Assembly (NCBI GenBank): GCA_018027755.1
Contig: GCA_018027755.1_4098.1
DNA: 64,000 nucleotides
DNA from: a phage
Strand: one strand, 5' to 3'
Part shown: one piece after another, positions 1 to 54,229 of the stretch
Layout: each line of letters starts with the position of its first letter
How positions within the stretch are numbered: position 1 is the first letter of the stretch
The notes under the pieces: generated by a model
Told to the model about the DNA's origin: nothing
What the model saw: the letters and a program-made list of their open reading frames with translations, nothing else
Databases searched by the model: none
Program-made: the position numbers and the translations under genes

Positions 1-2
1 AA

Positions 3-344
3 CTACAAGCAAATAAAGCGGCAGAAATTGAAGCGGCAAAGGCGGCCCGTGAAGCAGAACTACAAGCAACAATTGAAAGTATTCAGGCGGCAGTAGTTGG
101 ATTGGATCTGGAAGTAGTTACAGAGATGGCACAAAAAGCCCTGGCGAAAAAGTACGGTGAAGATAAGCCAGAAGTAAAAGCTAAAAAATGGATTCAAGAA
201 CGTGTAGCGGTAGTACTTGATAACGGGGAAGAATATCTGATTCCGGTGCGTGGTAACTGCATTGCGGTAGTACTGGATGCGATTAACTCCAGTGGTATGA
301 CTCGCGAGGAATGGATCGAAGCTCATCGCAAAGTTGAAGCATAA
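3..344 (+). CDS. hypothetical protein, 5' end outside window
   Basis: frame open from window edge to stop at 342-344; terminator follows. Confidence 0.55.
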   Translation, partial: LQANKAAEIEAAKAAREAELQATIESIQAAVVGLDLEVVTEMAQKALAKKYGEDKPEVKAKKWIQERVAVVLDNGEEYLIPVRGNCIAVVLDAINSSGMTREEWIEAHRKVEA

Positions 345-365
345 CAATTAAAGTACTGAATCACT

Positions 366-392
366 AGCCCACCTTAAACAGTGGGCTTTTTT
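366..392 (+). terminator. rho-independent terminator
   Basis: stem AGCCCAC/GTGGGCT, 8-nt loop, T-run. Confidence 0.8.
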
Positions 393-545
393 GTGTCTAT
401 CGTTTACCAGGCCACCAGCACCGCCTAGAAACGATTCTAACGCATTAAACTGATTATCTGATGCATTGCCCTAGCTGGTGGCGTTAAAGTCGTTAGAATG
501 CGATTGAGAGCGTTTAAAGTATTTTGCAAAAAGTAATAAAAAGTA

Positions 546-574
546 CTTGCACGATTAAGAGATTAGCGTATAAT
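546..574 (+). promoter_or_regulatory. sigma70-like promoter
   Basis: CTTGCA, 17-nt spacer, TATAAT. Confidence 0.6.
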
Positions 575-619
575 TAATTACATCAAGGTAAGACACCTTA
601 ACTAACTGAGGATATAAAG

Positions 620-772
620 ATGAATACTTATGACCTGGATTGTTTTACTTTACAAGTAATGTCAGTATGCAGTAAGAAAGATTGGTCATCAAAGGAATTT
701 AAAGCAGTTATCGCGTGTGCAAAACACGGCAAGACTATCAATGAAACGGCATCAATCATTGATAAACTTTAA
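620..772 (+). CDS. hypothetical small protein (50 aa)
   Basis: ATG 8 nt after GAGGAT SD, downstream of promoter; below ORF-track cutoff. Confidence 0.5.
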   Translation: MNTYDLDCFTLQVMSVCSKKDWSSKEFKAVIACAKHGKTINETASIIDKL

Positions 773-780
773 AAAATAGT

Positions 781-809
781 TTGACAATAGTTTTAAGTAC
801 TGGCATAAT
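781..809 (+). promoter_or_regulatory. sigma70-like promoter
   Basis: TTGACA, 17-nt spacer with AGTACTGG, CATAAT. Confidence 0.65.
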
Positions 810-842
810 ACATACATCAACTACTGAATAGGAATCAAAACA

Positions 843-1070
843 ATGGCTATCGTAATCGCTTATGTAACTGGTACTACTGGCACTTCTTCTACTGTTGCTG
901 TAATTACCAACAAGAAAGGTGCGGAATTACATTCTGCAATGGATACCTGGGCGGTAAATGAGTTCGGTCAGTGGGCAAGTGTAGCATATGTTGAAACCTA
1001 TCAAGTGCCAACCATTAGCTTAACGGATCTCGGTGTAGATCGTATCCTTTGCCTGGATGAATTAAATTAA
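843..1070 (+). CDS. hypothetical protein (75 aa)
   Basis: track ORF; promoter upstream; SD AGGAA. Confidence 0.65.
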   Translation: MAIVIAYVTGTTGTSSTVAVITNKKGAELHSAMDTWAVNEFGQWASVAYVETYQVPTISLTDLGVDRILCLDELN

Positions 1071-1077
1071 AAAAGTA

Positions 1078-1139
1078 CTTGCAAAGTAAGTTGGATAAAG
1101 TATAATACATTACATCAAGGGGAGAAAATGGTTCTCCCC
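1078..1139 (+). promoter_or_regulatory. promoter plus conserved 5' leader hairpin
   Basis: CTTGCA-17-TATAAT, then GGGGAGAA-loop-TTCTCCCC hairpin at 1119-1139. Confidence 0.65.
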
Positions 1140-1157
1140 ACTAAGAGGAAACTAAAA

Positions 1158-1301
1158 ATGAAAACTTGTCAATGTGGTAAAAAATCTATTACTGGTTTGA
1201 AACGGGGCGTTGCTCTTTGTCAGTATCACTATAACGCTCAGGTATGGGGTAAAGAGTGGGCCGACCAGGTGGAAGCAGTAAAGAAAGCAAAAAGTAAGTA
1301 A
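1158..1301 (+). CDS. hypothetical small Cys-rich protein (47 aa)
   Basis: ATG after AAGAGGAA SD; CxC...C pattern; below track cutoff. Confidence 0.5.
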   Translation: MKTCQCGKKSITGLKRGVALCQYHYNAQVWGKEWADQVEAVKKAKSK

Positions 1302-1320
1302 AATTATTATCACAGTACTA

Positions 1321-1349
1321 TTGACATAGATTGATAGTACTGGCATAAT
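1321..1349 (+). promoter_or_regulatory. sigma70-like promoter (repeated promoter type)
   Basis: TTGACA-17-CATAAT with AGTACTGG; near-identical copies at 1615, 4474, 12669. Confidence 0.65.
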
Positions 1350-1382
1350 AGATTTTATCAAGACAACTAAGAGGAAACAATA

Positions 1383-1595
1383 ATGGCTATCATCACAAAA
1401 ATCAAAGTAAACAAATCACTGGTTAAGCTGGAAGAAGTGAAAGAAGGTTATAAAGTATCGTGGTGCGGCATGTATCGGATTTTTACAGATGTTGACGATG
1501 CAATCAATTACTACACTGACACGGTAAAAAACTTTGTTCGTGCTGATGTGGTTATGGCAGTGGCAACACACAAAGCATCGAAAGAAAGTAAGTAA
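1383..1595 (+). CDS. hypothetical protein (70 aa), MAII-start paralog
   Basis: track ORF; SD AAGAGGAA; N-terminus resembles 4530 gene. Confidence 0.7.
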   Translation: MAIITKIKVNKSLVKLEEVKEGYKVSWCGMYRIFTDVDDAINYYTDTVKNFVRADVVMAVATHKASKESK

Positions 1596-1614
1596 AAATA
1601 TTATCACAGTACTA

Positions 1615-1643
1615 TTGACATAGTTTGATAGTACTGGCATAAT
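1615..1643 (+). promoter_or_regulatory. sigma70-like promoter
   Basis: TTGACA-17-CATAAT, AGTACTGG before -10. Confidence 0.65.
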
Positions 1644-1676
1644 AGATTTTATCAAGACAACTAAGAGGAAATTAAA

Positions 1677-2021
1677 ATGGCTAATATCAACACTATCGCA
1701 AAACAAAATATCAACCTGTCTTCTGTTGAAGTTGTACATATTGCCGCTCGGCGTTGGTTCCAGGCTTCATATGGTAACACTTATTTCTCTTTAAGTGTAG
1801 ACGTAGAAATTGATGGTAATTTTATTGAAGTAGTAAACGTGCCGTTCCAATATGGATACGGGGATCACTTTGACACTGTAGCAATGGAAGAATTTAGCAA
1901 GGTTATTAATATGGAAGATAAAGAGTTTTTACGCGGTTCTTATCTTTCCCGTTTTTGCCGTGACAATAATATCACTGTTTACAGTTCGGTAACTGATGTT
2001 AAACGCAAAAAAGATCTTTAA
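1677..2021 (+). CDS. hypothetical protein (114 aa), paralog of 8202 gene
   Basis: track ORF; SD AAGAGGAA; shares GNTY...YGYG and C-terminal DVKRKKD with 8202-8525. Confidence 0.7.
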   Translation: MANINTIAKQNINLSSVEVVHIAARRWFQASYGNTYFSLSVDVEIDGNFIEVVNVPFQYGYGDHFDTVAMEEFSKVINMEDKEFLRGSYLSRFCRDNNITVYSSVTDVKRKKDL

Positions 2022-2101
2022 TTAGCTTTACTTTATGCAGATACTTTGATATAGTGTCTGCATAGGGGAAAGAAATTAAATTAACTTAAGAGGATCGTAT
2101 A

Positions 2102-2371
2102 ATGAAAAATATCAGTACTTTAATCGATGCAGGTACTCATGTTCGTCGGTCTATGGTTGCAACCAGTACTACAAAACAAGTAGCGAGCGGTTATCTTGTA
2201 TTTGTGCACGATGGTAAACTCCTGGAACGTTCAATCAATTTTGATGTTAAAAACAATTGCCGTTTTATTATCTTTCGCCGTGAACAATATAAGATCGACA
2301 TTCCAGCGAAGCCCATTAGCGGTGCGTACAACGTGCAATCATTGTTTGAACGTCAACCATACACCTATTAA
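2102..2371 (+). CDS. hypothetical protein (89 aa)
   Basis: track ORF; SD AAGAGGA. Confidence 0.65.
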   Translation: MKNISTLIDAGTHVRRSMVATSTTKQVASGYLVFVHDGKLLERSINFDVKNNCRFIIFRREQYKIDIPAKPISGAYNVQSLFERQPYTY

Positions 2372-2422
2372 TCAAAACATCGTTAGCGGTCGATTTAGGC
2401 CGCTTATATTGGGGATTATACC

Positions 2423-2695
2423 ATGAACGTTAATCAAGTACTGAATGAGATCGAAAGCATCATTAAACCGATGAAGCGTACTGATGCTATGTTAACACCG
2501 GAAGAATGCCGCCTTTATGAGCGTTACAGCGTCGAACAAGTCCAGGCAATGGCTATGGCTACCCCAGCCGTTAAACAGCCTGAGAACGCGTTACAGGACG
2601 TTACAGGGGATTATATCATCAATCCAGTACTAGGGAAGATGGCTGCAATCACCGAAGATCAACAAGACTACTTAAGCCAGTACTTAAAAGGTTAA
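2423..2695 (+). CDS. hypothetical protein (90 aa)
   Basis: track ORF; weak SD. Confidence 0.55.
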   Translation: MNVNQVLNEIESIIKPMKRTDAMLTPEECRLYERYSVEQVQAMAMATPAVKQPENALQDVTGDYIINPVLGKMAAITEDQQDYLSQYLKG

Positions 2696-2700
2696 TTAAT

Positions 2701-2910
2701 ATGCTTACTGTACAGGATAAGATCGACATCTTAAAGGTTAATATGTATGTGATTGATGCAGTACCTGGTAAAGTATTTGCATACGATGACAGTACTGTAA
2801 GCGATTTCTACTATAGCCAGGACGTGGGGGATCTTTCTGTACAGTCGGTTATTGAAAACGTAGTTAATGCAGCGTATGAGCATTTACTTTCAAATAGTAC
2901 TTGCAATTAG
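2701..2910 (+). CDS. hypothetical protein (69 aa)
   Basis: track ORF; 5 nt after upstream stop. Confidence 0.55.
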   Translation: MLTVQDKIDILKVNMYVIDAVPGKVFAYDDSTVSDFYYSQDVGDLSVQSVIENVVNAAYEHLLSNSTCN

Positions 2911-2960
2911 TTTTTAAACGCGTATAATGTTTTACATGAAGGGGAGAAATGATTCTCCCC
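2900..2960 (+). promoter_or_regulatory. promoter plus 5' leader hairpin
   Basis: CTTGCA-17-TATAAT; GGGGAGAAATGATTCTCCCC hairpin. Confidence 0.65.
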
Positions 2961-2979
2961 ACTAATTAAGGAATATGAA

Positions 2980-3126
2980 ATGAAAGCATCAAAAAAGAGT
3001 AATACTAAGAAAGCACGTTCAACCTTAGATGGGGTATTCCCTTTACGTTTCGTTGATGAAGTAGTTTCCTACCCGCCGGGCCTTACTCCTGAGATGGTAG
3101 AAAGTTTGCGTAAATCTAAAAAATAG
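2980..3126 (+). CDS. hypothetical small basic protein (48 aa)
   Basis: ATG after AAGGAA SD downstream of hairpin; below track cutoff. Confidence 0.5.
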   Translation: MKASKKSNTKKARSTLDGVFPLRFVDEVVSYPPGLTPEMVESLRKSKK

Positions 3127-3128
3127 TA

Positions 3129-3189
3129 CTTGCAATTAGTTTTCAGTACTGTATAATAGTTTACATGAAGGGGAGAAATGATTCTCCCC
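3129..3189 (+). promoter_or_regulatory. promoter plus 5' leader hairpin
   Basis: CTTGCA-17-TATAAT; GGGGAGAAATGATTCTCCCC hairpin. Confidence 0.65.
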
Positions 3190-3207
3190 AATAACAGGAG
3201 AAACAAA

Positions 3208-3360
3208 ATGAAACAATACAACGCTCGGTTTGATGTTACTATCGGTAACGGCAAAGGTCAATTCTCTTTCAGTACTCGCCGCAGTTATACAGAAAACTTC
3301 CTGCGTAATTGTGCACTGACCGCCGCACAAATTAAACATTACTTCCAGGCTAAAAAATGA
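3208..3360 (+). CDS. hypothetical protein (50 aa)
   Basis: ATG 7 nt after AGGAGA SD; track ORF 3178-3360 trimmed because its 5' part runs through the hairpin. Confidence 0.6.
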   Translation: MKQYNARFDVTIGNGKGQFSFSTRRSYTENFLRNCALTAAQIKHYFQAKK

Positions 3361-3446
3361 AATCATTAGCTTATTACAGTTCAGCGGTGATCGGTGCATT
3401 GATCGCGGCATTGTTAGTAACCTATCTATTCTTTATGGTGATTTAA
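3357..3446 (+). CDS. small hydrophobic peptide (29 aa), single predicted TM helix
   Basis: ATGA overlap with upstream stop; hydrophobic sequence. Confidence 0.4.
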   Translation: MKSLAYYSSAVIGALIAALLVTYLFFMVI

Positions 3447-3581
3447 ATGAATCCTAACGGTTTAATTTACAGTACTCCTAAAACGAAAGCAGATAAAGCG
3501 AAAGCACGTAAAGCGAAAGTAAAGGAGTACATTAAGCAAGGCATGACGCGAAAGGCGGCAGTACTGAAAGCTAAAAAATAA
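3447..3581 (+). CDS. hypothetical small basic protein (44 aa)
   Basis: ATG immediately after upstream stop; Lys/Ala-rich. Confidence 0.4.
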   Translation: MNPNGLIYSTPKTKADKAKARKAKVKEYIKQGMTRKAAVLKAKK

Positions 3582-3589
3582 ATGAAAAA

Positions 3590-3676
3590 AGTGGTTGACT
3601 TCGGTCAGCCATTTTGCTATTATATATTCATTGAGAGATAGCTCACTAGCCCACCGGGTGCATAAGTGTATCTATT
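3590..3676 (+). repeat. repeated intergenic element, copy 1 (embedded promoter)
   Basis: TTGACT-17-TATTAT, then conserved core AGCCCACCGGGTGCATAAGTGTATC. Confidence 0.6.
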
Positions 3677-3795
3677 ATATAAGTATTGAGTACTGAAAAC
3701 TATTTTTAAAAAGTACTTGCAAACTATCTCAATTGGCGTATAATGTTTTACATCGCAAGGGGAAACGGTTTCCCCTGGTAATAAGGAAACAAATC

Positions 3796-4137
3796 ATGAC
3801 TATCTCAATTGCTCAATCTAACTTTGAAAATGAAATCATCGCCCAGGCACTGCGTTTAAATGATGGTCGGGCCGAAATTAATTACGGTTTCAATTCAGGC
3901 GGTTGTGAAAACTATCAGTACTTTGTAACGGCTGATGGCGGTGTCCTGGGTATCAATACAGTTATTGTAAACATCCAAAAAATTAATTTCAATGATCCAG
4001 ACGATAGCCAGTTTTACATTGTAGGCGTAGACGTGAACTATGAGGATGACTCACTAACTGATGATCACACTGGCGAGCGGTTAGAAAGTGCATACGGTGA
4101 AGATGATTATCAGTCCGGTCCAGAAGATTTCGAATAA
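3796..4137 (+). CDS. hypothetical acidic protein (113 aa)
   Basis: ATG after AAGGAAA SD downstream of hairpin; track ORF trimmed. Confidence 0.65.
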   Translation: MTISIAQSNFENEIIAQALRLNDGRAEINYGFNSGGCENYQYFVTADGGVLGINTVIVNIQKINFNDPDDSQFYIVGVDVNYEDDSLTDDHTGERLESAYGEDDYQSGPEDFE

Positions 4138-4151
4138 TATAAAAAAATAGT

Positions 4152-4211
4152 TTGACAATAGATTATAGTACTGTATAATAGTTTACATCAAGGGGAGAAA
4201 AACTTCTCCCC
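4152..4211 (+). promoter_or_regulatory. promoter plus 5' leader hairpin
   Basis: TTGACA-16-TATAAT; GGGGAGAA...TTCTCCCC hairpin. Confidence 0.65.
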
Positions 4212-4233
4212 ACTAACAGAGAGAGAAAACAAA

Positions 4234-4446
4234 ATGGCTAATATCCGGTCGAAATTAAAAAATGCAAAACAAGTTTTATTTTCAGATCATGAATACTTTA
4301 ATAAAGATATTACAGGAGTTACAAGTATCAAGGAAGTAAAAGAAAAAACCGGTGTTTTGTGTGATGTGCGATTAGTTGGGACATTTGGGAATAACGTGCT
4401 ATATCGCTGCGGTGATTACAATTTTACACTGACTATCATTAACTAA
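4234..4446 (+). CDS. hypothetical protein (70 aa)
   Basis: track ORF; purine-rich SD. Confidence 0.65.
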   Translation: MANIRSKLKNAKQVLFSDHEYFNKDITGVTSIKEVKEKTGVLCDVRLVGTFGNNVLYRCGDYNFTLTIIN

Positions 4447-4529
4447 AAATATTATCACAGTACTATTGACATAGTTTGATAGTACTGACATAATAACTTT
4501 TATCAACTACACTACTAAGGAATTAAAAA

Positions 4530-4709
4530 ATGGCTATCATCGCAAAAACTGAAATCGTTGGTCTGGATTCTATCATCATGACGTTTGAAGATCAAAAAGG
4601 TATGTATGTAGTTTCCTATGGTGATTATGTTCGGGAGTATGAAACGGTAGACGAAGCCTTTGAAAGTTATATTCGCCAGGTGAATAAAGCATACGACGAC
4701 TACCGCTAA
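4530..4709 (+). CDS. hypothetical protein (59 aa), MAII-start paralog
   Basis: ATG after TAAGGAA SD; promoter repeat upstream; resembles 1383 gene; below track cutoff. Confidence 0.55.
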   Translation: MAIIAKTEIVGLDSIIMTFEDQKGMYVVSYGDYVREYETVDEAFESYIRQVNKAYDDYR

Positions 4710-4801
4710 AATATATTACCAGTACTATTAAATCTATTGACAACGTTTGATAGTACTGTATAATAAGTTTTATAAACAGTAATTAACTTAACCTAAGAGA
4801 G

Positions 4802-4954
4802 AGAAACAAAATGATCGCACTGGATTCATTCATCGACGCAGTACTGGCAAAAACTGGCGAGGATCTGACCGCAGAACAATACGCGATGATCGAGCAATGT
4901 CAGCAAAACGGTAAATCGGTGAAAGATACTGTTAAGATTATCCGCAAGATGTAA
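4802..4954 (+). CDS. hypothetical protein (50 aa)
   Basis: ATG after AGAGAGAGAAA; promoter upstream; E. coli-like codons. Confidence 0.5.
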   Translation, partial: RNKMIALDSFIDAVLAKTGEDLTAEQYAMIEQCQQNGKSVKDTVKIIRKM

Positions 4955-4960
4955 TATTAT

Positions 4961-4988
4961 AGCCCACTGGTTAACGCTGGTGGGCTTT
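4961..4988 (+). terminator. terminator-like hairpin
   Basis: stem AGCCCAC/GTGGGCT then short T-run. Confidence 0.45.
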
Positions 4989-5059
4989 AATCATTTACCC
5001 TATACAATGCCAGTACTAAACCGTTTATCTCGTTAGAATGCGTTACAGGACGTTTAACA

Positions 5060-5257
5060 ATGATTAGCATGAAATCAGTACAAAAACAAATAGAAACATT
5101 ATCAAAAATTAAACGTAAACAGTACTCCTTAGAATATACAATCAATGGTAACTATCATCTAATGAAAGAAAATAATTTTATAGTCATTGATGAATCATTG
5201 CAAATCATTAGTATAGTACTGAAAGCATTAATCAATGACAGAAAAAAATTAAAATAA
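5060..5257 (+). CDS. hypothetical protein (65 aa), doubtful
   Basis: track ORF; no clear SD; AT-rich. Confidence 0.3.
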   Translation: MISMKSVQKQIETLSKIKRKQYSLEYTINGNYHLMKENNFIVIDESLQIISIVLKALINDRKKLK

Positions 5258-5363
5258 TCTATTGACAATATCATCCAGTACTGGCATAATACTTACATCA
5301 AGACGAGAACGTCACTAACCCATAGGGTGCACAAATGTAACTATATAATATCGTTCAATAAAT

Positions 5364-5423
5364 GATCAAAAAAGTACTGGATCAATTTAACATAAGGAGT
5401 ATAATTCTGATCAATTCTTGATC
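5364..5423 (+). promoter_or_regulatory. cluster of four GATC sites in TGATCAA context
   Basis: GATC at 5364, 5380, 5409, 5420; upstream of TraR-like gene. Confidence 0.4.
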
Positions 5424-5586
5424 AAAGGCAATATACGCAGTTGAATTTATATAGACAATACAAAGGCGTTACTATCCGTGGTAATGCTGGTGGATATGTA
5501 GTATCATATGGTTTGAATAAGATTAGCACTAGTAGTATTATTGTAGCATTACAGTACTATAGTATTTTTATAATGAGGTTAAAATA

Positions 5587-5844
5587 ATGGCAGTAGGATA
5601 CGCGAAAGACGGGGCCGAACAAGACGAGATTCACGCAGTGATTCAGGCCGCCGTTAACCACGCTAGAAAGCAAATTAACGCACAAAGAGAATCACTGGTA
5701 CATTGCCTCGACTGCGGCGATAAAATCCCTGAGAATCGACGCCAGGCCGTTATAGGGTGCATGTATTGTATTACTTGCCAGGAGGATCATGATAGTACTT
5801 TTAAAAGAGATCCGCGTAATTGTTGGCATAGATCTATGAGATAA
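5587..5844 (+). CDS. TraR/DksA-family C4 zinc-finger protein
   Basis: CLDCGDKIPENRR...CMYCITCQ matches TraR/DksA zinc-finger signature. Confidence 0.7.
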   Translation: MAVGYAKDGAEQDEIHAVIQAAVNHARKQINAQRESLVHCLDCGDKIPENRRQAVIGCMYCITCQEDHDSTFKRDPRNCWHRSMR

Positions 5845-5907
5845 AAAGTATTGACAGTACTGAAAGATAGTGTATAATGTTTTATATCTTAACTGAGGAT
5901 AGTAATC

Positions 5908-6264
5908 ATGGGAATACAACATATCACGCGTACTACTGACAATGGAGAGATCACTGGTTATCAGGTACAGGGCAAAGTAGCACAATTGCAGTACTGGTTT
6001 GTTAAACGTGGAATCATTGCACCGGATCTTGATTATGACCGTGTAGCGTTTATTGATTCTCTTTATGTTGATCCTGATAGTCGGGGCAATGGTGAAGGTA
6101 ACGAATTAATGAATGCCTTTATTGATGCCGCCGGTGATTCAGATTGTATCATCTTAGAATGCGATACGGGAGAAGATAACGCCTTTAATCTTAAAGAATG
6201 GTACGAAGGTTTCGGATTCGAGGTATTGATAGATAGTGAATATCCTATCATGATTTTATCATAG
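5908..6264 (+). CDS. small GNAT-like acetyltransferase (tentative)
   Basis: LYVDPDSRGNGEGNELM resembles GNAT motif A; SD GAGGA. Confidence 0.45.
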   Translation: MGIQHITRTTDNGEITGYQVQGKVAQLQYWFVKRGIIAPDLDYDRVAFIDSLYVDPDSRGNGEGNELMNAFIDAAGDSDCIILECDTGEDNAFNLKEWYEGFGFEVLIDSEYPIMILS

Positions 6265-6342
6265 TACTTGCATTTAGTTTTCAGTACTGTTATAGTACTT
6301 ACATCAAGGGGAAACGTCTTCCCCTACTAAGAGGAAATGAAA

Positions 6343-6531
6343 ATGGAAAACTTATCAAGTATTTTAGTACAAGATGATTTTGGCAATCCTGGTAGTGCTA
6401 TCATTGTTCGGGGTAATAAAGCAACGTTTGTTATTGCTGGTGGGCCAGTACAGCGTAGCATTAAAAATAATGCTGTTACCATTAATAATGTACGCTATCG
6501 CTTAGATAAAGAATTGATTCATAAACTTTAA
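6343..6531 (+). CDS. hypothetical protein (62 aa)
   Basis: second ATG chosen for SD spacing (track start 6337). Confidence 0.6.
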   Translation: MENLSSILVQDDFGNPGSAIIVRGNKATFVIAGGPVQRSIKNNAVTINNVRYRLDKELIHKL

Positions 6532-6538
6532 AAAGTAT

Positions 6539-6598
6539 TTGACAATAGATTATAGTGCTGTATAATAAGTTACATGAAGGGGTGAAATGATTCTCCCC
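6539..6598 (+). promoter_or_regulatory. promoter plus 5' leader hairpin
   Basis: TTGACA-16-TATAAT; GGGGTGAAATGATTCTCCCC hairpin. Confidence 0.65.
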
Positions 6599-6615
6599 AC
6601 TAAGAGGAAAGAAAA

Positions 6616-6828
6616 ATGCAAGGTCAACTAATCGTTCGTAAATGGTCTGATACTAACGAAAAACCGTGGGATGTACAATACATCGGACCGGATGGGGTAT
6701 CACGTTATCAGCCTGGCGTAACGCATAGTACTGAGCAATTCGCAAACGCTCACCGCGAACGCCTGTTAGAATCCATGAAACAGGGATTCTGTGAAAAATT
6801 CATTCAAGATCATTGGCTGAAAGATTAA
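6616..6828 (+). CDS. hypothetical protein (70 aa)
   Basis: track ORF; SD AAGAGGAAA. Confidence 0.7.
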   Translation: MQGQLIVRKWSDTNEKPWDVQYIGPDGVSRYQPGVTHSTEQFANAHRERLLESMKQGFCEKFIQDHWLKD

Positions 6829-6845
6829 TATAAGGAGTACAGCTT

Positions 6846-6938
6846 ATGCAAATGAATCCGATGATTATTGTTTTAGCTGTACTTATGATCATTCATGCAA
6901 TAGTAGAAGTATTAACGCAATCAGGAGTAATAAAATGA
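6846..6938 (+). CDS. small hydrophobic peptide (30 aa)
   Basis: ATG after TAAGGAG SD; hydrophobic; first of three coupled small ORFs. Confidence 0.45.
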   Translation: MQMNPMIIVLAVLMIIHAIVEVLTQSGVIK

Positions 6939-7108
6939 TTCAAGTAGAATTATCAGTACTGAAAGATCTGTTTTATCGGTTAGGTACTACTGGCGAGTAT
7001 CCTAAAAGTGATACCGCAAAACTTTTTGTATCACTCGACTTATGGCAACGCGAACAATTAGTAATGTCCTGGCGTAAAGGTAAAGCAGATAGCGAGGTGA
7101 AAGCATGA
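6935..7108 (+). CDS. hypothetical protein (57 aa)
   Basis: ATGA overlap with upstream ORF. Confidence 0.45.
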   Translation: MIQVELSVLKDLFYRLGTTGEYPKSDTAKLFVSLDLWQREQLVMSWRKGKADSEVKA

Positions 7109-7254
7109 AAGAATTCTTATTCGAAGTAGTGTTTCAAGGTGTCGGTAGTAACCAACTGATTCGCTCAAGTGGTTACAATGTTAACCAGGCATGGAATAAC
7201 ATTAAACAAATGTACCCGAACGCTATCACCTATCGCAACCCGAAACAAGTTTAA
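7105..7254 (+). CDS. hypothetical protein (49 aa)
   Basis: ATGA overlap with upstream ORF. Confidence 0.45.
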   Translation: MKEFLFEVVFQGVGSNQLIRSSGYNVNQAWNNIKQMYPNAITYRNPKQV

Positions 7255-7261
7255 AAATAAT

Positions 7262-7346
7262 TGAAAAAGGGATTGACACCGGTCAGTCCCTTTGCTATTA
7301 TATACGCATAGAAACAAATCAGCCCACAGGGTGCATAAATGTATCT
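7262..7346 (+). repeat. repeated intergenic element, copy 2
   Basis: TTGACA-17-TATTAT plus core AGCCCACAGGGTGCATAAATGTATC. Confidence 0.6.
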
Positions 7347-7569
7347 ATTGTTTGCTGGTGGCTAGTACTGAAAACTATTTTTAAAAAAGTACTTGCATTG
7401 TACTTAGAATCAAGTATAATGTTTTACATCAGGACGGGGAACGAAACAAGTAACCCCGTTAAGTAGTCCAGGAGTAAGACATACGAAAAACTCCCCTGAT
7501 AAAATAGTTTGACAATAGAAATTAAACGAGTATAATACTTACATCAACCACTGATAAGGAAACATAAAA

Positions 7570-7845
7570 ATGCGGATTCTACTGACAGCTAACGAAATCG
7601 AACAAGTACTGACTACTAACCTGGAAGACTGGAAACGTGAAGCAGATATCCAGGCGGTTCAATGGCTTAACGATAAGTTAACGCCGGATGACTTAAGCAA
7701 GATTGTAGATCCTCAATTCTACGAAGATATTCACGACACCGCGTTAAGCGTCGAGGATGTACTTGATAAGCACTACATTGATACTGATTTACATGTTTAC
7801 GGTCGTAAAAACTTTATCACTATTCACGACATTTACAATACTTAA
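7570..7845 (+). CDS. hypothetical protein (91 aa)
   Basis: track ORF; SD TAAGGAAA; promoter upstream. Confidence 0.7.
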   Translation: MRILLTANEIEQVLTTNLEDWKREADIQAVQWLNDKLTPDDLSKIVDPQFYEDIHDTALSVEDVLDKHYIDTDLHVYGRKNFITIHDIYNT

Positions 7846-7932
7846 GTATTGACAAAGTATCTTAGTACTGTATAATAGTTTACATCAAGGCGGGGAAATG
7901 GTTCCCCTCCTAACTAAAAGAGAGAAATTAAA

Positions 7933-8115
7933 ATGGCTAAGTGCACTATCTGTAAGAAAGAAATCGTATTAGTTCCAAGTGCCCGTGAACGTGCCGCTCG
8001 GTTCGGTGGCAAAGCGTCAGACTATACAAAAATGTTTACTGCCCATGCAGATTGCCAGGTAGCAAAACGTTCACAAGAAAGCGTAGAATTAATGCGTAAA
8101 CTTTCCAAAAAATAA
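7933..8115 (+). CDS. hypothetical small Cys-containing protein (60 aa)
   Basis: track ORF; promoter and hairpin upstream. Confidence 0.65.
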   Translation: MAKCTICKKEIVLVPSARERAARFGGKASDYTKMFTAHADCQVAKRSQESVELMRKLSKK

Positions 8116-8201
8116 GTATTGACAAAGTATCTTAGTACTGTATAATAGTTTACATCAAGTGAGGGGAAACGGTTCCCCTCCTAACAGAGAGAGAAATAAA
8201 A

Positions 8202-8525
8202 ATGGCTATGATCCTTACCCAGAAAGTGGAATTGAAAATTGTAACCTCCTTTGACATTAAAGTTAATCGCTGGACTGATCGGAACGGCAATACTTACCAC
8301 TCTTGCTACGTGTCTGCATTGATTGGTGATCGTTGGGAAGACCTGGGACACGAAACTTTTACATACGGTTACGGTACGCAAGGCGAATACACGGGCTTGG
8401 AGATCATTAAAGAAACCGTTATAGGTTTCAACCCGAAAGAAAAAGTTATTCACCGCATCGAAAAAGAGATTAACAAAGAAATAACAGTTCGCTACTACGA
8501 TGTAAAACGTAAGAAAGACATGTAA
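8202..8525 (+). CDS. hypothetical protein (107 aa), paralog of 1677 gene
   Basis: track ORF; shares GNTY...YGYG and DVKRKKD with 1677-2021. Confidence 0.7.
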   Translation: MAMILTQKVELKIVTSFDIKVNRWTDRNGNTYHSCYVSALIGDRWEDLGHETFTYGYGTQGEYTGLEIIKETVIGFNPKEKVIHRIEKEINKEITVRYYDVKRKKDM

Positions 8526-8620
8526 TAGAATCCATTTAAAGTACTATTTGACATTACACAGATAGTACTTTATAATAGACTCTAACTTGTAGTACTAACT
8601 CAACTAATAGGATGTATACC

Positions 8621-9016
8621 ATGATTACTAAATTCTACGCTACCCGTGAAGCTGCCCGTATTGTTGCACGCGAGGAAGGAGCAGCATTTAAAGACATGGG
8701 AACGACAGCACCGAAAGGTCAACGCTGGGCCGTACAGTTCAAAGAAATCTCTGATATTGTGAATTCACCTGAGCCAGTACTGACAGCAGCAGAACTAAAA
8801 CGAGCGGATATGCTGGCGGCAATACTTGACGCTCAAGATGAATTTATCGCTGATTCTGATATCAAAGTACAGGTAAACCACACCGCATGGACTCACGCGG
8901 ATCACCTGGCAAACCTTAAGCGTCCAAGTGAACTGATTCGCAACCAGAAAGAGATCCGACACGACCGTAAGGGTAATCGTGTAACAGTATACAGTAAACG
9001 CCGCCAGGTTATCTAA
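8621..9016 (+). CDS. hypothetical protein (131 aa)
   Basis: ATG with AGGA 8 nt upstream; track start 8612 alternative. Confidence 0.65.
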   Translation: MITKFYATREAARIVAREEGAAFKDMGTTAPKGQRWAVQFKEISDIVNSPEPVLTAAELKRADMLAAILDAQDEFIADSDIKVQVNHTAWTHADHLANLKRPSELIRNQKEIRHDRKGNRVTVYSKRRQVI

Positions 9017-9038
9017 TAACTTGCAGTACTAACAACAC

Positions 9039-9063
9039 GGCGGGATCAGTTCCCGCCTTTTTT
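9039..9063 (+). terminator. rho-independent terminator
   Basis: stem GGCGGGA/TCCCGCC then T-run. Confidence 0.8.
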
Positions 9064-9077
9064 ATAGGACAAACAAA

Positions 9078-9332
9078 ATGATTAAGGTTCAACTATATAA
9101 AGATAACATCTTACGGGTACACTATAAAGCACCGAAGAGAATCATCACAAAGGCCGTACAGCTTGCTAATGAGTTTATTAATGGTAACCTATTACCAAGG
9201 AAGTTAAGCAACGGGAAACTGCGTGTAATCGACGTGGACACTAACAACAGGATAGTAATCGAGAACACAGGAAAAATAAACCTTTATGAACACCAACAAT
9301 ATAATAAGAAAATAAAACTAATATCACGTTGA
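9078..9332 (+). CDS. hypothetical basic protein (84 aa)
   Basis: track ORF; weak SD. Confidence 0.5.
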   Translation: MIKVQLYKDNILRVHYKAPKRIITKAVQLANEFINGNLLPRKLSNGKLRVIDVDTNNRIVIENTGKINLYEHQQYNKKIKLISR

Positions 9333-9385
9333 CAGTACTCAAATGTTTTAGTACTATGTACACATACCAACACGGGAGAAACAAA

Positions 9386-9604
9386 ATGAAATTATCTAAA
9401 ATCGAAAAAACAACTATTGATGTAGCAGTTAAGCACGGTTATACCTTTCGTAATGATTCACATTTTACCAATTTTCAACAAGGACAGAGAACTATTAAAA
9501 AACTAATTGACAAAGGCTTATTAGTTAAAGTAGATAACGGTAACGGTGTGGAGTATCAACCAACACAGGACGCATTTTATTTTAAGAAATATAATATTAT
9601 CTAA
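9386..9604 (+). CDS. hypothetical protein (72 aa)
   Basis: ATG after GGGAGAAACAAA; promoter TTGACA-17-TACTAT at 9331; track ORF trimmed. Confidence 0.6.
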   Translation: MKLSKIEKTTIDVAVKHGYTFRNDSHFTNFQQGQRTIKKLIDKGLLVKVDNGNGVEYQPTQDAFYFKKYNII

Positions 9605-9662
9605 TTGACAGTACTCAAATGTTTTAGTACTATATGTACATACCAACACGGGGAAAAACAAA

Positions 9663-9905
9663 ATGATTACTTTAGAAAAACGTATCAAAGAAACTACATC
9701 GCTGGTGGAATTGTTAACAGTACTCAAATGTAAAACAACACCATTCAGCACGCCGGACTTTATTAATATGGTTGATGTTAATGGTCGCTATCGTATCACG
9801 GTCGAACAAGGAGCGGCGAAAGTATTCAGTACTAAAAACACTAAGGAAGTGATCCACGCCGTTAATGTTAAAAAAGTAGTTGCCATTGATAGTAAAGTAC
9901 TGTAA
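9663..9905 (+). CDS. hypothetical protein (80 aa)
   Basis: track ORF; duplicated copy of the 9331 promoter at 9604. Confidence 0.6.
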   Translation: MITLEKRIKETTSLVELLTVLKCKTTPFSTPDFINMVDVNGRYRITVEQGAAKVFSTKNTKEVIHAVNVKKVVAIDSKVL

Positions 9906-9936
9906 GATAGTTTCATTAACTCAAGGAGTAAATGCA

Positions 9937-10521
9937 ATGCGTAATTATACTAAATTCATCCGTACACTGTCAGAAATGGAAACCAACAAAGAGATCCTTT
10001 CAGCTTGTCGGTTAGCTGGCCTGGAGATCATCGGTGCTGGTTCTTCCCGTATAGTATTCGCTTTAAATGATCGGTTAGTGATTAAGGTCGCGAATTGTGA
10101 TGCGGGTGTCGAACAAAATGAAACTGAATGTAAGGTATGGAATTTTTTAGACTATGACCGCCCTCAGTTGAAACAGTACTTTGCAAAGGTGCATATGCAT
10201 TTATGCGATCCTGATAATATGTTTATCGTTATGGATCGGTTGAGTACTGCAAGCAAAGGCAGTGTGAAGCACGTTAACGCGTGCAATGAATTAAAGTACA
10301 ATATTAAACGTAATGCAATCGAACGCCAGCACCGCTTTGCTGATGCACTACAACACGTTGATGATACATTATCAACACTAACGATAAGAGATATCAGAAA
10401 ACAGAATATCGGCCAGGATCGTAATGGCCTTATTAAAGTACTTGATTACGGTTTAACCCGCAATATCTGGAATCAGTACTATAAAAAGCGTGATGTGGCA
10501 GCAAGTAAGGTAACACGATAA
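9937..10521 (+). CDS. Ser/Thr protein-kinase-like protein
   Basis: IGAGSSRIVF Gly-loop, VIKVA lysine, IRDIRKQNIG catalytic loop, LDYG (DFG-like); SD AAGGAG. Confidence 0.55.
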   Translation: MRNYTKFIRTLSEMETNKEILSACRLAGLEIIGAGSSRIVFALNDRLVIKVANCDAGVEQNETECKVWNFLDYDRPQLKQYFAKVHMHLCDPDNMFIVMDRLSTASKGSVKHVNACNELKYNIKRNAIERQHRFADALQHVDDTLSTLTIRDIRKQNIGQDRNGLIKVLDYGLTRNIWNQYYKKRDVAASKVTR

Positions 10522-10529
10522 AAAAGATT

Positions 10530-10620
10530 AAAAAAGGGATTGACTCCGGTCAGTCCCTTTGCTATTATATATCCATTGAGAGATAACTCACTGACCCATA
10601 GGGTGCGGAAGTGTATCTAT
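10530..10620 (+). repeat. repeated intergenic element, copy 3
   Basis: TTGACT-17-TATTAT plus conserved core. Confidence 0.6.
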
Positions 10621-10742
10621 TATATAAGTATTCAGTACTGAAAACTATTTTTAAAAAAGTACTTGCATTGTACTTAGAATCAAGTATAATGTTTTATATC
10701 GAGAGGGGGAAATGGTTCTCCCTGGCAATAAGGAATAAAATC

Positions 10743-10964
10743 ATGACTACAATGACTTGCATTTACGCTTCCAATCGTCTGAATGATGCGGCCTTTAATG
10801 TTGATTCAGAATATCAATGTTATCGGGATGAAAATAAAAAAGTTTTTGTAGTTGATAATAATGGTTTCCATATTGAATTACAATCCGGCTTCACTGGTGT
10901 TGATGGTAAATCAGTATGGGGCGTACAGGATGATAAAGGTACATATCATTTTAAACGTAATTAA
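10743..10964 (+). CDS. hypothetical protein (73 aa)
   Basis: ATG after TAAGGAATAAAATC; track ORF trimmed past hairpin. Confidence 0.65.
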   Translation: MTTMTCIYASNRLNDAAFNVDSEYQCYRDENKKVFVVDNNGFHIELQSGFTGVDGKSVWGVQDDKGTYHFKRN

Positions 10965-11048
10965 GTATTTGACAAAGTATCTTAGTACTGTATAATAGTT
11001 TACATCAAGGGGAGAATAGTTCTCCCCGATACTAAAAGGAATAAAATC

Positions 11049-11456
11049 ATGACTACTACCAATCAAGCTCGGAACATCACCAACGATAAAAATCATGCTG
11101 CAATGGTCGCTGGTTACATTGAAGCTATGCAATTCAGTACTGTACACAATGAGAACGGCGAATACCTGGAAGATTATGAATTATCAGAGCAAGCCCATCA
11201 AGCGGCAGTGATTGCATGTTCACGTTTCCTTGCTGTACATGGTGAAGATATGGAAACAGTACAAAAACACCATAATCCTGATTATACTTATAGTCATGCA
11301 GGTCATGATCTCTTTCTTACTCGCGAAGGTCACGGCACTGGTTTTTGGGATCGTGATATCGGTCACTATGATGATATATTCACTAAGTACTGCGAAGAAA
11401 TCAACGTTTGCGATCCCTATGTAGGCGATGATAATCTAATCTATATGGGCGAATAA
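11049..11456 (+). CDS. hypothetical protein (135 aa)
   Basis: track ORF; SD AAAGGAA; promoter and hairpin upstream. Confidence 0.7.
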   Translation: MTTTNQARNITNDKNHAAMVAGYIEAMQFSTVHNENGEYLEDYELSEQAHQAAVIACSRFLAVHGEDMETVQKHHNPDYTYSHAGHDLFLTREGHGTGFWDRDIGHYDDIFTKYCEEINVCDPYVGDDNLIYMGE

Positions 11457-11544
11457 AAGTATTTGACAAAGTATATCAGTACTGTATAATAGTTTACATC
11501 AAGGGGAGAATAGTTCTCCCCCACCAATAAAAGGAAACAAAATT

Positions 11545-11817
11545 ATGTCCAGCTACTCCGCTACTATGATCATTAAAGATATGAACGGTAATCCTACTTC
11601 TGCTGGTGGATCATTTGGAAACATTAATTTAGATGGGCGGTTATCCATGCAATCAGCCATCGATACAGCGAAAGAAGTTTTTAAGAATGAATGTACTGTA
11701 AGCAAGCTGGATTATATGGGATTCGCTATCGAGAAAACTAATCGTTTTGTGAACTACAAAAATCCACTGATGATTGATACTAACCTGAAAGCTAACGAAG
11801 TGGAATACTTATTATGA
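11545..11817 (+). CDS. hypothetical protein (90 aa)
   Basis: track ORF; SD AAAGGAAA. Confidence 0.7.
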   Translation: MSSYSATMIIKDMNGNPTSAGGSFGNINLDGRLSMQSAIDTAKEVFKNECTVSKLDYMGFAIEKTNRFVNYKNPLMIDTNLKANEVEYLL

Positions 11818-12005
11818 CAGTTGAAGAAGTTAAAAAAGTACTGGCAGTACTACGCTATCATAATCATTGCAAGGTGAAGAATGATCCTGATTATCTCGAT
11901 TCATCCCTGGAAGAGGATACACTACAAGCAATAAGCCATATGCAAAAAATGCTTAAGCGTATGACCGAAAAGAATAGACCGGACTATATCGGAAATAAAA
12001 TTTAA
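11814..12005 (+). CDS. hypothetical protein (63 aa)
   Basis: track ORF; ATGA overlap with upstream gene. Confidence 0.6.
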   Translation: MTVEEVKKVLAVLRYHNHCKVKNDPDYLDSSLEEDTLQAISHMQKMLKRMTEKNRPDYIGNKI

Positions 12006-12091
12006 AAAGTACTTGCATTGTAGTTAGATTAACGTATAATGTTTTATATCGAGAGGGGAAATGGTTTCCCCTCAAGTCCAGGAGATACACC

Positions 12092-12355
12092 ATGAACACT
12101 ATCGAAATCACTATCAATGCACACGTATACGACAACGTAGTACTGCAAACTACTATGACCGCTAATGATACCAGTACTTTGCGGAATACTGTTATTAGTG
12201 CCGTATGTGCTGCAATCGGTGATGTTGCCCTGGAAAATGCAGAACATATCAACAACGGTTTCACTATGTGCAAACGTGATAACGCAAAACATATCATCGT
12301 GGAAGGTTACGGCGGTGTAGAATTTAATGTTTATATGAAAAAAGTATTTGCATAA
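12092..12355 (+). CDS. hypothetical protein (87 aa)
   Basis: track ORF; SD CAGGAGA. Confidence 0.7.
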   Translation: MNTIEITINAHVYDNVVLQTTMTANDTSTLRNTVISAVCAAIGDVALENAEHINNGFTMCKRDNAKHIIVEGYGGVEFNVYMKKVFA

Positions 12356-12422
12356 TAACTAAAACAAAGTATAATGTTTTGCATAGGGGGAGATATCCTC
12401 CCCCACTAAAAGGAGTAATAAA

Positions 12423-12647
12423 ATGGCTAACTTTGATGAACTGATGCGGGAAGTAGCTACCCTGGCAGAAGAGAAGAAATCATTCGATTCTATCTATAAC
12501 ACCTCTTACCGTGATTCAGTACTGGCATGTACTCAGGATCAAAAAGATGAACTAATCGCCACATATCATGAAGCATGGAAGTACTACCGCCAATGGGAGA
12601 AAGAAGAAAGCGAGTCTACCATCAACGGCATCAATAATCTAATCTAA
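12423..12647 (+). CDS. hypothetical protein (74 aa)
   Basis: track ORF; SD AAAGGAG. Confidence 0.7.
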   Translation: MANFDELMREVATLAEEKKSFDSIYNTSYRDSVLACTQDQKDELIATYHEAWKYYRQWEKEESESTINGINNLI

Positions 12648-12723
12648 AAGTTTTATTTCAGTACTATTGACATAGCTTGATAGTACTGATGTAATAACTT
12701 TACTAACTACAAGGGGAAACATA

Positions 12724-12981
12724 ATGGAACAGTTCACACAATATCGGGTAAATCCTCAAGCTATGGCCTACGTAGAAGACCATAAAACGTTACCAGTACT
12801 GCAACCAGTTAAAGGCCATATCTATCGTGCAATGTCGTGGAGTACGGCCCAGGATGGCTATAAAACCGTAGCTGTCGGTATGTACTGCGGTAATGGTGAA
12901 TGGTTTGATCCAAATAATCCGGTCGCCGTTGACAGTACTGAAAAAATGAAATGGGCCGACTACATCGAAGATATTTCATAA
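12724..12981 (+). CDS. hypothetical protein (85 aa)
   Basis: track ORF; repeated promoter type upstream. Confidence 0.65.
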   Translation: MEQFTQYRVNPQAMAYVEDHKTLPVLQPVKGHIYRAMSWSTAQDGYKTVAVGMYCGNGEWFDPNNPVAVDSTEKMKWADYIEDIS

Positions 12982-13071
12982 AAACTATTTGACAGTACTA
13001 ACCAGTAATGTATAATGTTTTACATAGAGCGGGGGAATAGTTCTCCCGCCAATAGTTTGGAGTAAAACATT

Positions 13072-13272
13072 ATGTCTATCGCTATCGCCCTGGTTGAAGT
13101 ACTGAAAGAAGCTAAAGCCAACCTTATCGATGTACAGATTAAGGAATTGCAAAACGGCTTAATCGGCTGCACTTGTACCGCTGGCGGTGCGGCAGACTAT
13201 CGAGAACACGAATCACTCGAATCACTGGTTCGGTATCTTACCATGATCGTTGATGATTGGAGAATCATCTAA
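13072..13272 (+). CDS. hypothetical protein (66 aa)
   Basis: track ORF; SD TGGAGT. Confidence 0.65.
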   Translation: MSIAIALVEVLKEAKANLIDVQIKELQNGLIGCTCTAGGAADYREHESLESLVRYLTMIVDDWRII

Positions 13273-13284
13273 CAAAAAAAGAAT

Positions 13285-13370
13285 AAAAAAAGGGATTGAC
13301 TCCGGTCAGTCCCTTTGCTATTATATACGCATAGACAAAAACTAGCCCACAGGGTGCATAAGTGTATCCA
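13285..13370 (+). repeat. repeated intergenic element, copy 4
   Basis: TTGACT-17-TATTAT plus core AGCCCACAGGGTGCATAAGTGTATC. Confidence 0.6.
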
Positions 13371-13519
13371 AAATATATAGTTAATAACGGTGAGTAACTA
13401 TCTGCTGGTGGAGTGAAAACTATTAATAAAAAAAGTATTGACAAAGTATATCAGTACTGCGATAATGTATCTCGTAGGGCGGCAATGGTGCGACGGCCCA
13501 CAAAGTTAGGAGATTCAAA

Positions 13520-13852
13520 ATGACTACTTCAATCGCTATCGTTAAAGCTTTCATCCGTACTAATGTTTCCTCTGTATTCATCGACGGCCTCGACCGTAAC
13601 GTAGAATACTCAATCATTATCGCACAAACGGCAAACGGTTCTCGGTACATCCTTAATGATAGTGAAGCAAATCACTACTACTTCACTAAAGCCACTGGCT
13701 TTAAACGCATCGATGCTGATGTAGTATACGCTAAGATGAATAAGCTGGTAGATAAGATTAACGCTAAAGGTACTATAGATTTACAGTACTGGACCGAAAC
13801 CGATCCAGAATATGGATCTCACCGCTACCTGAATCCAGGTATTAAAATGTAA
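13520..13852 (+). CDS. hypothetical protein (110 aa)
   Basis: track ORF; SD TAGGAGA. Confidence 0.7.
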   Translation: MTTSIAIVKAFIRTNVSSVFIDGLDRNVEYSIIIAQTANGSRYILNDSEANHYYFTKATGFKRIDADVVYAKMNKLVDKINAKGTIDLQYWTETDPEYGSHRYLNPGIKM

Positions 13853-53707: not shown

Positions 53708-54229
53708 ATGTCGAAGAAGGATGCTTCGAAAAAACATTCAGTACATTTCAGTACTGGAAAGGACAACTGGACAACTCCCAAAGATTTCTTTGAAGATTTG
53801 GATGAGTTATGGGGATTTACACTTGATGCTGCTTGTGTTGATGAGACTGCATTATGTGAGAATTATTTTACACCAAATGATGATTCTCTTTCACAGGATT
53901 GGGGAAAGAATATAGTTTGGTTGAACCCTCCATATAGTGATTTGAAAACATGGTTATCTAAAGCAGTAGATGCGTATAATAAAGGGGCAACTGTATTAAT
54001 TCTTGTACCATCAAGAACGGATACTATAGCCTTTCAGGATTATGCTGCGAAAGTTTGTGATTGTATTTGTTTTATTAAGGGAAGGTTACGATTTGGTATC
54101 CCAGAAGAACCAGAGAAGAAAACAGATTCAGCACCATTTCCTTCGTGTCTGATAGTACTGGATAAGTACTTAACCACTGCTAAAATCAATTATCTTAAAT
54201 CTCTTGGATTGGTGATGAAGAATTTATGA
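53708..54229 (+). CDS. dam: phage Dam-like DNA N6-adenine methyltransferase
   Basis: NWTTPKDFFEDLDELWGFTLDAACVD and LNPPYS motif; SD AAAGGAA. Confidence 0.85.
   Translation: MSKKDASKKHSVHFSTGKDNWTTPKDFFEDLDELWGFTLDAACVDETALCENYFTPNDDSLSQDWGKNIVWLNPPYSDLKTWLSKAVDAYNKGATVLILVPSRTDTIAFQDYAAKVCDCICFIKGRLRFGIPEEPEKKTDSAPFPSCLIVLDKYLTTAKINYLKSLGLVMKNL

Follow-up and report, generated by a model that had tools for sequence, protein, structure and literature searches.

GATC-centred half-sites over a predicted early promoter of an Asteriusvirus-type jumbo phage as the possible core of a conserved two-part operator

The DNA analysed here (the window, 64,000 nucleotides of contig GCA_018027755.1_4098.1) is assigned, on the basis of sequence identity, to a jumbo coliphage of the 121Q/PBECO4-like (Asteriusvirus) type, of which it represents the early region at the left end, since positions 4900-6300 share 98.5% identity with the Escherichia phages Ecwhy_1, JNE01 and fEgEco12 and 93% with 121Q. 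In vB_Ec-M-J and fEgEco12, a direct terminal repeat of approximately 21 kb includes the region of interest; in the window it takes up about the first 15 kb. This terminal repeat is crowded with small open reading frames that reside behind near-perfect predicted sigma-70 promoters, and a consensus scan returned seven perfect TTGACA-16-TATAAT promoters within positions 3000-8500 alone. To our knowledge, almost nothing is known about the regulation of the hundreds of small early genes in Rak2/121Q-like jumbo phages.

Several features of composition were noted. At the end of the terminal repeat there is a step (window positions ~1-15100 versus 15101-64000), with an observed/expected ratio for GATC of ~0.8-1.2 inside versus ~0.35-0.4 outside and a GC content of 0.36-0.38 inside versus 0.31-0.35 outside. 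The hexamer AGTACT is present in 225 copies in the whole window versus 16.4 +/- 3.8 expected (e.g. 3712-3717, 5856-5861 and 7388-7393). Within the terminal repeat it belongs to the early-promoter consensus (AAAAAGTAC-TTGCAW), just 5' of the -35 hexamer, and AGTACTG directly precedes TATAAT in the early promoters. A further ~130 copies lie outside the terminal repeat. The 4-bp palindrome GCGC is avoided totally, with no copy in the ~355 kb that result when the window is joined with fEgEco12 (~147 copies expected outside and ~40 inside the terminal repeat); the same genome encodes a C5-cytosine methyltransferase.

The locus itself, the elements of which are all given on the plus strand, ends with a gene for a TraR/DksA-like zinc-finger protein (5587..5844). 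This earlier assignment is borne out by a match to the C4 zinc-finger family PF01258 (E=3.7e-9, 36.9 bits versus a cut-off of 24.9); NCBIfam equivalogs stay below their cut-off (NF008243, 78.6 bits versus 96). The GATC cluster treated below had been placed just upstream of this gene. That has to be corrected, because a 48-aa open reading frame with a TTG start (5441..5587, g029 in fEgEco12) intervenes and the cluster is located 16-75 bp 5' of it. The stop codon of g029 overlaps the start codon of the TraR-like gene (TAATG). Judged by sequence, g029 is a real gene, as its amino acids are kept via synonymous changes between the two Asteriusvirus clades. The searches gave 11 protein clusters, and homologues with 31-40% identity occur in an Erwinia phage, Hallingskeid, as well as in metagenomes, where they were seen on ten contigs. 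A scan of IMG/VR with the g029 alignment retrieved 121Q itself only, and tblastn with an Erwinia-like homologue did not reveal further phage genera. By eye, g029 shares G-x-YVVSYG with a 59-aa open reading frame at 4530-4709 (GGYVVSYGLN and GMYVVSYGDY in the 4530 frame), so that these two small early proteins are possibly paralogues of a remote kind.

Together with two predicted promoters, P1 and P2, a leader and the candidate operator sites, g029 makes up a module of 330 bp between a 65-aa open reading frame (5060-5257) and the TraR-like gene. The module is bounded by a 10-bp direct repeat, TTAAAATAAT, found at 5249..5258 and again at 5579..5588. Phage phAPEC6 has a single copy (L008, 650-662) and lacks everything in between, which amounts to a clean insertion/deletion polymorphism. 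With the module missing, the 65-aa frame abuts the TraR-like gene in phAPEC6. For ph0011 and UE-S1, the same 77% coverage of the region suggests the same gap.

P1 is predicted at 5262..5290 (TTGACA-17-CATAAT with a TG element, 11/12 in the consensus scan) and is invariant in seven relatives. It is followed by the leader motif CCCATAGGGTGCACAAATGTA (5319..5339), which occurs five times in the window versus zero expected and is invariant in all lineages compared. P2 is predicted as AAAAAAGTAC-TGGATC-16-TATAAT (5378-5405), with the -35 hexamer at 5378..5383 containing the GATC at 5380 and the -10 hexamer at 5400..5405, which is invariant in the Asteriusvirus relatives. Alignment places TGGATC opposite TTGACA/TTGACT in relatives and TTGCAA/TTGCAT in four paralogous cassettes, with AAAAAGTAC preceding all of them. 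P2 is thus homologous to the TTGACW-17-AATAAT promoters of the relatives and to the four paralogous promoters. Its hexamers are of the sigma-70 kind with a spacing in the usual range of 16-18 bp, and it shares both spacing and the upstream element AAAAAGTAC with the perfect early promoters of the phage. A likely ribosome-binding site, AAAGG (5425..5429), is located 11 nt 5' of the g029 start codon and occurs in both Asteriusvirus clades. Promoter-like matches on the minus strand that use TTGATC as -35 were dismissed for lack of conservation in the PBECO4 clade.

The succession of P1, leader and a second promoter of the type AAAAAGTAC-TTGCAW-16-TATAAT is a repeated cassette present in five copies, of which only that at 5255-5410 carries GATC sites. 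Since the four paralogous P2-type promoters are free of GATC, the sites are an addition specific to this copy. All five tandem-promoter cassettes (3585-3745, 5255-5410, 7262-7420, 10530-10690 and 13285-13470) contain the leader motif CCCAYNGGGTGCAYAARTGTA, which holds a small CCC/GGG hairpin and has no match in Rfam. In four cassettes, the -35 hexamer (TTGACW) resides within a hairpin with a 12-bp stem, AAAGGGATTGACnCCGGTCAGTCCCTTT, followed by GCTATTAT (3588-3623, 7266-7301, ~10535-10568 and ~13291-13324), an arrangement that is terminator-like and promoter-like at once.

The cluster consists of four GATC sites within 60 bp, at 5364, 5380, 5409 and 5420. The sequence-only reading described all of them as TGATCAA; the number is right, the uniform form is not. 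TGATCAA is found at 5363, 5408 and 5419, while 5379-5385 reads GGATCAA, so that all four share GATCAA in one orientation. In P2 coordinates, 5364 falls at about -48, 5380 within the -35 hexamer, 5409 near +1 and 5420 near +10. Upstream of the promoter, the distal half-site 1b (TGATCAA, 5363..5369), whose TGATC is invariant in 10/10 aligned sequences, is preceded by 11 bp by a degenerate half-site 1a (CGTTCAA, 5352..5358), in which an A-to-T change at 5354 has removed the GATC. Half-site 1a reads CGATCAA in the 121Q clade (fEgEco12, 121Q, Turkey3 and vB_Ec-M-J) and TTGATCAA in PBECO4 and the Erwinia-like group. The 121Q clade consequently shows a fifth GATC 11 bp before 5364 that the window has lost through one substitution. 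The proximal pair, TGATCAA-TTC-TTGATCAA (5408..5425, GATC at 5409 and 5420), forms an inverted repeat that spans +1 to about +14 at the predicted start and is located immediately 5' of AAAGG. It aligns to the TGATCAATAATTGATC palindrome that brackets the -10 hexamer in the Erwinia-like group.

Whether GATC is unusually dense at this place, as had been supposed, depends on what is counted. In the window GATC falls short of expectation (119 observed versus 209 expected), and the ~355 kb of joined sequence show an about two-fold depletion (579 versus ~1150-1270; observed/expected 0.42 outside the terminal repeat). The first 15 kb with the early region of the terminal repeat show no depletion (62 versus 51-75). 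Four GATC in 60 bp have a probability of ~0.02 with a uniform distribution in the window, ~0.06 with a uniform distribution genome-wide and ~0.08-0.10 at local density, which makes the count by itself marginal evidence. The clustering of the 7-mer is unusual: TGATCAA/TTGATCA occurs seven times in the window versus 22 expected, with four of the seven in the cluster, and three such 7-mers within 65 bp are expected anywhere in 355 kb with p ~4e-4. Among the ~355 kb examined, this is the sole cluster of four GATC and holds the sole pair of TGATCA not more than 35 bp apart. A chance cluster without function would agree with the count at local density; it conflicts with the 7-mer statistics and with sites that stay invariant beside diverged sequence, in relatives whose g029 proteins are just 31-40% identical, and we consider its probability practically negligible. 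The claim that the cluster belongs to a regulatory region is supported; it overlaps a predicted promoter, is conserved and has a non-random make-up. As a separate observation, a looser group of GATC sites (5785, 5809 and 5831; 5785-5834) resides in the 3' end of the TraR/DksA-like gene and is one of only three clusters with three GATC in 70 bp in the ~355 kb.

Comparison of 14 lineages reveals what is conserved. Upstream of g029 homologues, we counted 53 GATC sites, and the spacing within pairs is always exactly 11 bp. Of the 53 sites, 50 carry T at -1, 47 carry A at +1 and 43 carry A at +2, counts that are not independent because the lineages are related and effectively represent 3-6 independent arrangements, and that in the proximal pair are partly forced by the -10 hexamer. 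The conserved unit is A-W-T-GATC-A-A, arranged in 11-bp-phased pairs that form palindromes; the 4-bp spacers, the stretch up to the -35 hexamer and the promoter spacer diverge freely among lineages. Every lineage has kept at least two intact GATC 11 bp apart. The usual layout is one distal pair plus a proximal palindromic pair, TTGATCAAT-A-ATTGATCA, centred on the -10 hexamer. In nearly all members of the Erwinia-like group, the order is leader, TTGATCAA-N3-TGATCAA(A), TTGACW, a 17-bp spacer and AATAAT bracketed by TGATC...GATC. Here the proximal palindrome is TTGATCAAT-A-ATTGATC(W), centred on the AATAAT of TTGACW-17-AATAAT, and the distal pair is located 31-33 bp further upstream, i.e. about three helical turns away on the same face. 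The PBECO4 clade, which is ~78% identical here versus at least 90% in the flanking genes, has four GATC that form two pairs with 11-bp spacing, located at a TTGATC -35 hexamer and 5' of it, and none 3' of the -10. The proximal pair always lies on the core promoter, be it over the -10 (Erwinia-like), over +1/+10 (121Q clade) or over the -35 (PBECO4 clade). In a MAFFT alignment, the downstream pair of the window coincides with the palindrome bracketing the -10. The two differ by 12 bp inserted in Asteriusvirus, with which a new TATAAT was brought in, so that both elements have persisted through a remodelling of the promoter around them.

Losses were seen as well. Some half-sites no longer contain GATC and have kept the rest of the motif (TTAATCAC in L016/L017 and TTGTTCCC in L031/L032), a common behaviour of operators. 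L029 and L030 have lost the whole distal pair, and no lineage has lost everything. In the Erwinia-like group, an unrelated 93-aa gene follows g029 and a TraR/DksA homologue is missing, while more distal neighbours are syntenic; conversely, phAPEC6 has the TraR-like gene and lacks the sites. The presence of the sites in Erwinia-like lineages without a TraR-like gene links them to g029 and P2 and not to the TraR-like gene. A further GATC was noted right after the -10 hexamer of P1 (TATTATAGATCC), at the predicted start site, in most Erwinia-like relatives (e.g. L010, 529-534, with the same position in L012, L014, L015, L017 and L018) and not in L027-L032.

Several readings of these sites can be weighed. 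One is a switch operated by Dam and SeqA without any dedicated phage regulator: SeqA would bind the hemimethylated pairs, or Dam methylation would alter recognition by RNA polymerase, and P2 would act differently on injected and on replicated phage DNA. The hosts, Escherichia and Erwinia, are Dam+/SeqA+ enterobacteria. The phage contributes an N6-adenine methyltransferase of its own (53708..54229, plus strand, NPPY motif), and the earlier label 'Dam-like' is supported by its clear membership in the 'Dam' family PF05869 (E=7.5e-32, 110.8 bits versus a cut-off of 28.1). The score for TIGR01712 is just under the cut-off (92.5 bits versus 97.05), identity to the Dam enzymes of Stx phages and T1-like phages is only 30-36%, and a search for a solved homologue did not find one. 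The second annotated methyltransferase, g455 of fEgEco12, was discarded as a GATC methylator, as it is a C5-cytosine enzyme and thus irrelevant to GATC. Another gene, g271 of fEgEco12 (116992-117336; L021, 47193-47537; outside the window), is annotated as 'SAM hydrolase' with no support from Pfam; if correct, the annotation would bear on any methylation model. Lambda DNA from Dam+ hosts is reported to be ~50% methylated, as cited in PMC3299994. Phage DNA can thus be under-methylated in Dam+ hosts, so that differing methylation states of the cluster during infection are conceivable.

The geometry, too, is what SeqA prefers, namely at least two GATC sites on the same DNA face and within about three turns (PMC2691817): the sites are 11 bp apart within pairs and the pairs 31-33 bp apart in the Erwinia-like group. 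Each lineage retains at least one intact 11-bp pair, one GATC resides inside the predicted -35 and one at the predicted +1, and the cluster stands out in a GATC-poor genome. The flanks tell against this reading. Neither Dam nor SeqA needs them, and still ~80-95% of the sites keep T at -1 and AA at +1/+2, with variation at neighbouring positions. Furthermore, the remaining motif persists in half-sites whose GATC is without its G or A, and SeqA binding does not involve the palindromic extension TTGATCAAT. A mechanism based purely on Dam and SeqA therefore fails to explain what is conserved, and we regard it as unlikely, though not negligibly so.

The sites are also located between P1 and the start codon and would be part of P1 transcripts. 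Any two TGATCAA are mutually complementary, and RNAalifold pairs 1a with 2b and 1b with 2a. One might hence think of TGAUCAA repeats forming hairpins that attenuate, process or stabilise the g029-traR mRNA. The folding energy of the region from P1 to the start is ordinary (z=-0.94), however, and covariation is uninformative, with one of 17 predicted pairs changed on both sides and sites that hardly vary. Neither do hairpin arms have to be palindromes or contain GATC, and the rearrangement in PBECO4 (11, 5 and 11 bp) destroys the predicted helices and keeps TGATCA. The Rfam scan of 3000-8500 gave just a sub-threshold match to the S15 leader elsewhere. An element acting at the RNA level is accordingly very improbable.

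Yet another function to consider is that of a replication origin, a packaging site or a recombination site, comparable to the GATC-rich oriC, P1 oriR or the TGATCA hexamers of P1 pac. The cluster is genome-unique, intergenic, AT-rich and promoter-associated, and its hexamers are repeated. Against this stands its absence, with the entire 330-bp module, from the viable phage phAPEC6 and apparently also from ph0011 and UE-S1, as well as its constant position on the promoter of one small gene. In addition, it lies ~11 kb inside the 21-kb terminal repeat, away from the genome end, and not in hexamer clusters flanking a cleavage site at a genome end as in a P1-type pac; PhageTerm and restriction data for fEgEco12 place the termini elsewhere. 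We deem this possibility more remote still than an RNA element.

What remains is a sequence-specific regulator. The conserved unit is longer than GATC, palindromic and phased, which points to a sequence-specific DNA-binding protein and not to Dam/SeqA alone. Inverted-repeat half-sites overlap the core promoter and are conserved against a diverging background, as is expected of a palindromic operator, and a single cluster of this kind in a GATC-poor genome of ~355 kb fits an autoregulatory operator acting at one locus. With a confidence somewhat above even, we propose on these comparative grounds that the cluster forms the centre of an operator in two parts, which is conserved and consists of TGATCA(A) palindromes in pairs spaced by exactly 11 bp. 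The distal pair would lie upstream of the -35 and the proximal pair over the core of the early promoter P2, which is predicted to drive a small accessory operon of g029 and, in this phage, the TraR/DksA-like RNA-polymerase regulator. A sequence-specific binder, probably dimeric or tetrameric, would occlude P2 when sitting on the pairs; the bound pairs could also stop read-through from P1 upstream, and expression of the operon would be limited or timed.

Within this operator model, g029 is a weak candidate for the binder, less likely than not to be the right one. It is the only gene that is always adjacent to the sites, which makes negative autoregulation, with g029 repressing its own operon, the leading guess. 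An AlphaFold2 model of the protein (pLDDT 88.6) shows four beta strands and a C-terminal helix. No signature of a helix-turn-helix or ribbon-helix-helix was seen in g029, Pfam had no match for g029 and its homologues, and the same was true for the g029 profile against PDB sequences, for hhalign against the AP2 domain of ERF1 (with an approximate query sequence) and for Foldseek of the model against the PDB. Foldseek against BFVD retrieved uncharacterised small phage proteins only. The sites were also compared by eye with FNR, IHF, DnaA and Pho-box-like consensus sequences without a convincing match. Our search for literature on TGATCAA in phages and on Asteriusvirus promoters found nothing relevant, and the fEgEco12 paper contains no methylation or promoter analysis.

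The operator reading does not leave methylation aside. As every half-site is centred on GATC, Dam from host or phage would put methyl groups into the recognised major groove, and by analogy with opvAB, agn43 and pap (PMC4856963) it is plausible that Dam methylation modulates binding. The TGATCA hexamers of P1 pac are another precedent. A more specific version, which we consider improbable, is that g029 and its homologues (48-62 aa, beta-sheet-plus-helix) read TGATCAA differently in the methylated, hemimethylated and unmethylated state and that the early operon is timed by the methylation state of the DNA. Injected parental DNA would then be distinguished from freshly replicated DNA, and the TraR-like modulator of host RNA polymerase would be timed accordingly. 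If true, this would represent a developmental timer in a lytic jumbo phage otherwise purged of GATC.

The locus offers a compact cis element, in which two phased palindromes, a defined promoter and an adjoining candidate regulator are combined and which is unique in the genome. Should g029 bind to it, this protein would establish a novel family of tiny phage proteins that bind DNA, and should Dam methylation modulate the binding, the locus would be one of the few known instances where a virulent phage controls genes through methylation. In addition, the element would control a TraR-like protein, i.e. a member of a class that reprograms host RNA polymerase, and would thus bear on the timing of host take-over.

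Among known systems, classical operators come close. As in the lac, gal, lambdoid and P2-type cases, a palindrome covers -10/+1, a second copy is located a few helical turns upstream and the nearest gene is small, suggestive of autoregulation. The phage cluster differs in that its candidate regulator lacks a helix-turn-helix or ribbon-helix-helix signature, and we know of no operator that matches the half-site TTGATCAAT. GATC inside a -35 or -10 hexamer is familiar from IS10 pIN, dnaA P2 and the P1 cre promoters, and the Asteriusvirus clades resemble these with a GATC in the predicted -35 (TGGATC or TTGATC). In the Erwinia-like lineages, in contrast, the -35 is a plain TTGACW and GATC flanks the -10, so that GATC within the hexamer is not a conserved feature. 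P1 pac consists of clustered TGATCA/G hexamers at which Dam methylation controls cleavage. It shares with our cluster the hexamer TGATCA in four to five repeats within a short stretch of phage DNA; unlike P1 pac, the cluster lies off the packaging end, overlaps a promoter and belongs to a module that is missing in some viable relatives. SeqA-bound clusters such as oriC and the dnaA promoter likewise feature closely spaced GATC on the same face, but SeqA sites do not need conserved flanks, and the four to five sites of the phage cluster are tied to one accessory gene and dispensable. In opvAB, GATC sites and OxyR half-sites number four each (PMC4856963). Together with agn43 (OxyR) and pap (Lrp), it exemplifies several GATC in phased half-sites directly 5' of or over a promoter and on one helix face. 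In these systems the binder is a known host protein, to whose consensus GATC is incidental, and heritable phase variation is the outcome, whereas in the lytic jumbo phage GATC forms the centre of every half-site and there is a candidate binder only. All in all, the cluster adds a further case to a well-known type of regulatory design, and an ordinary one if it just serves the autoregulation of an accessory gene.
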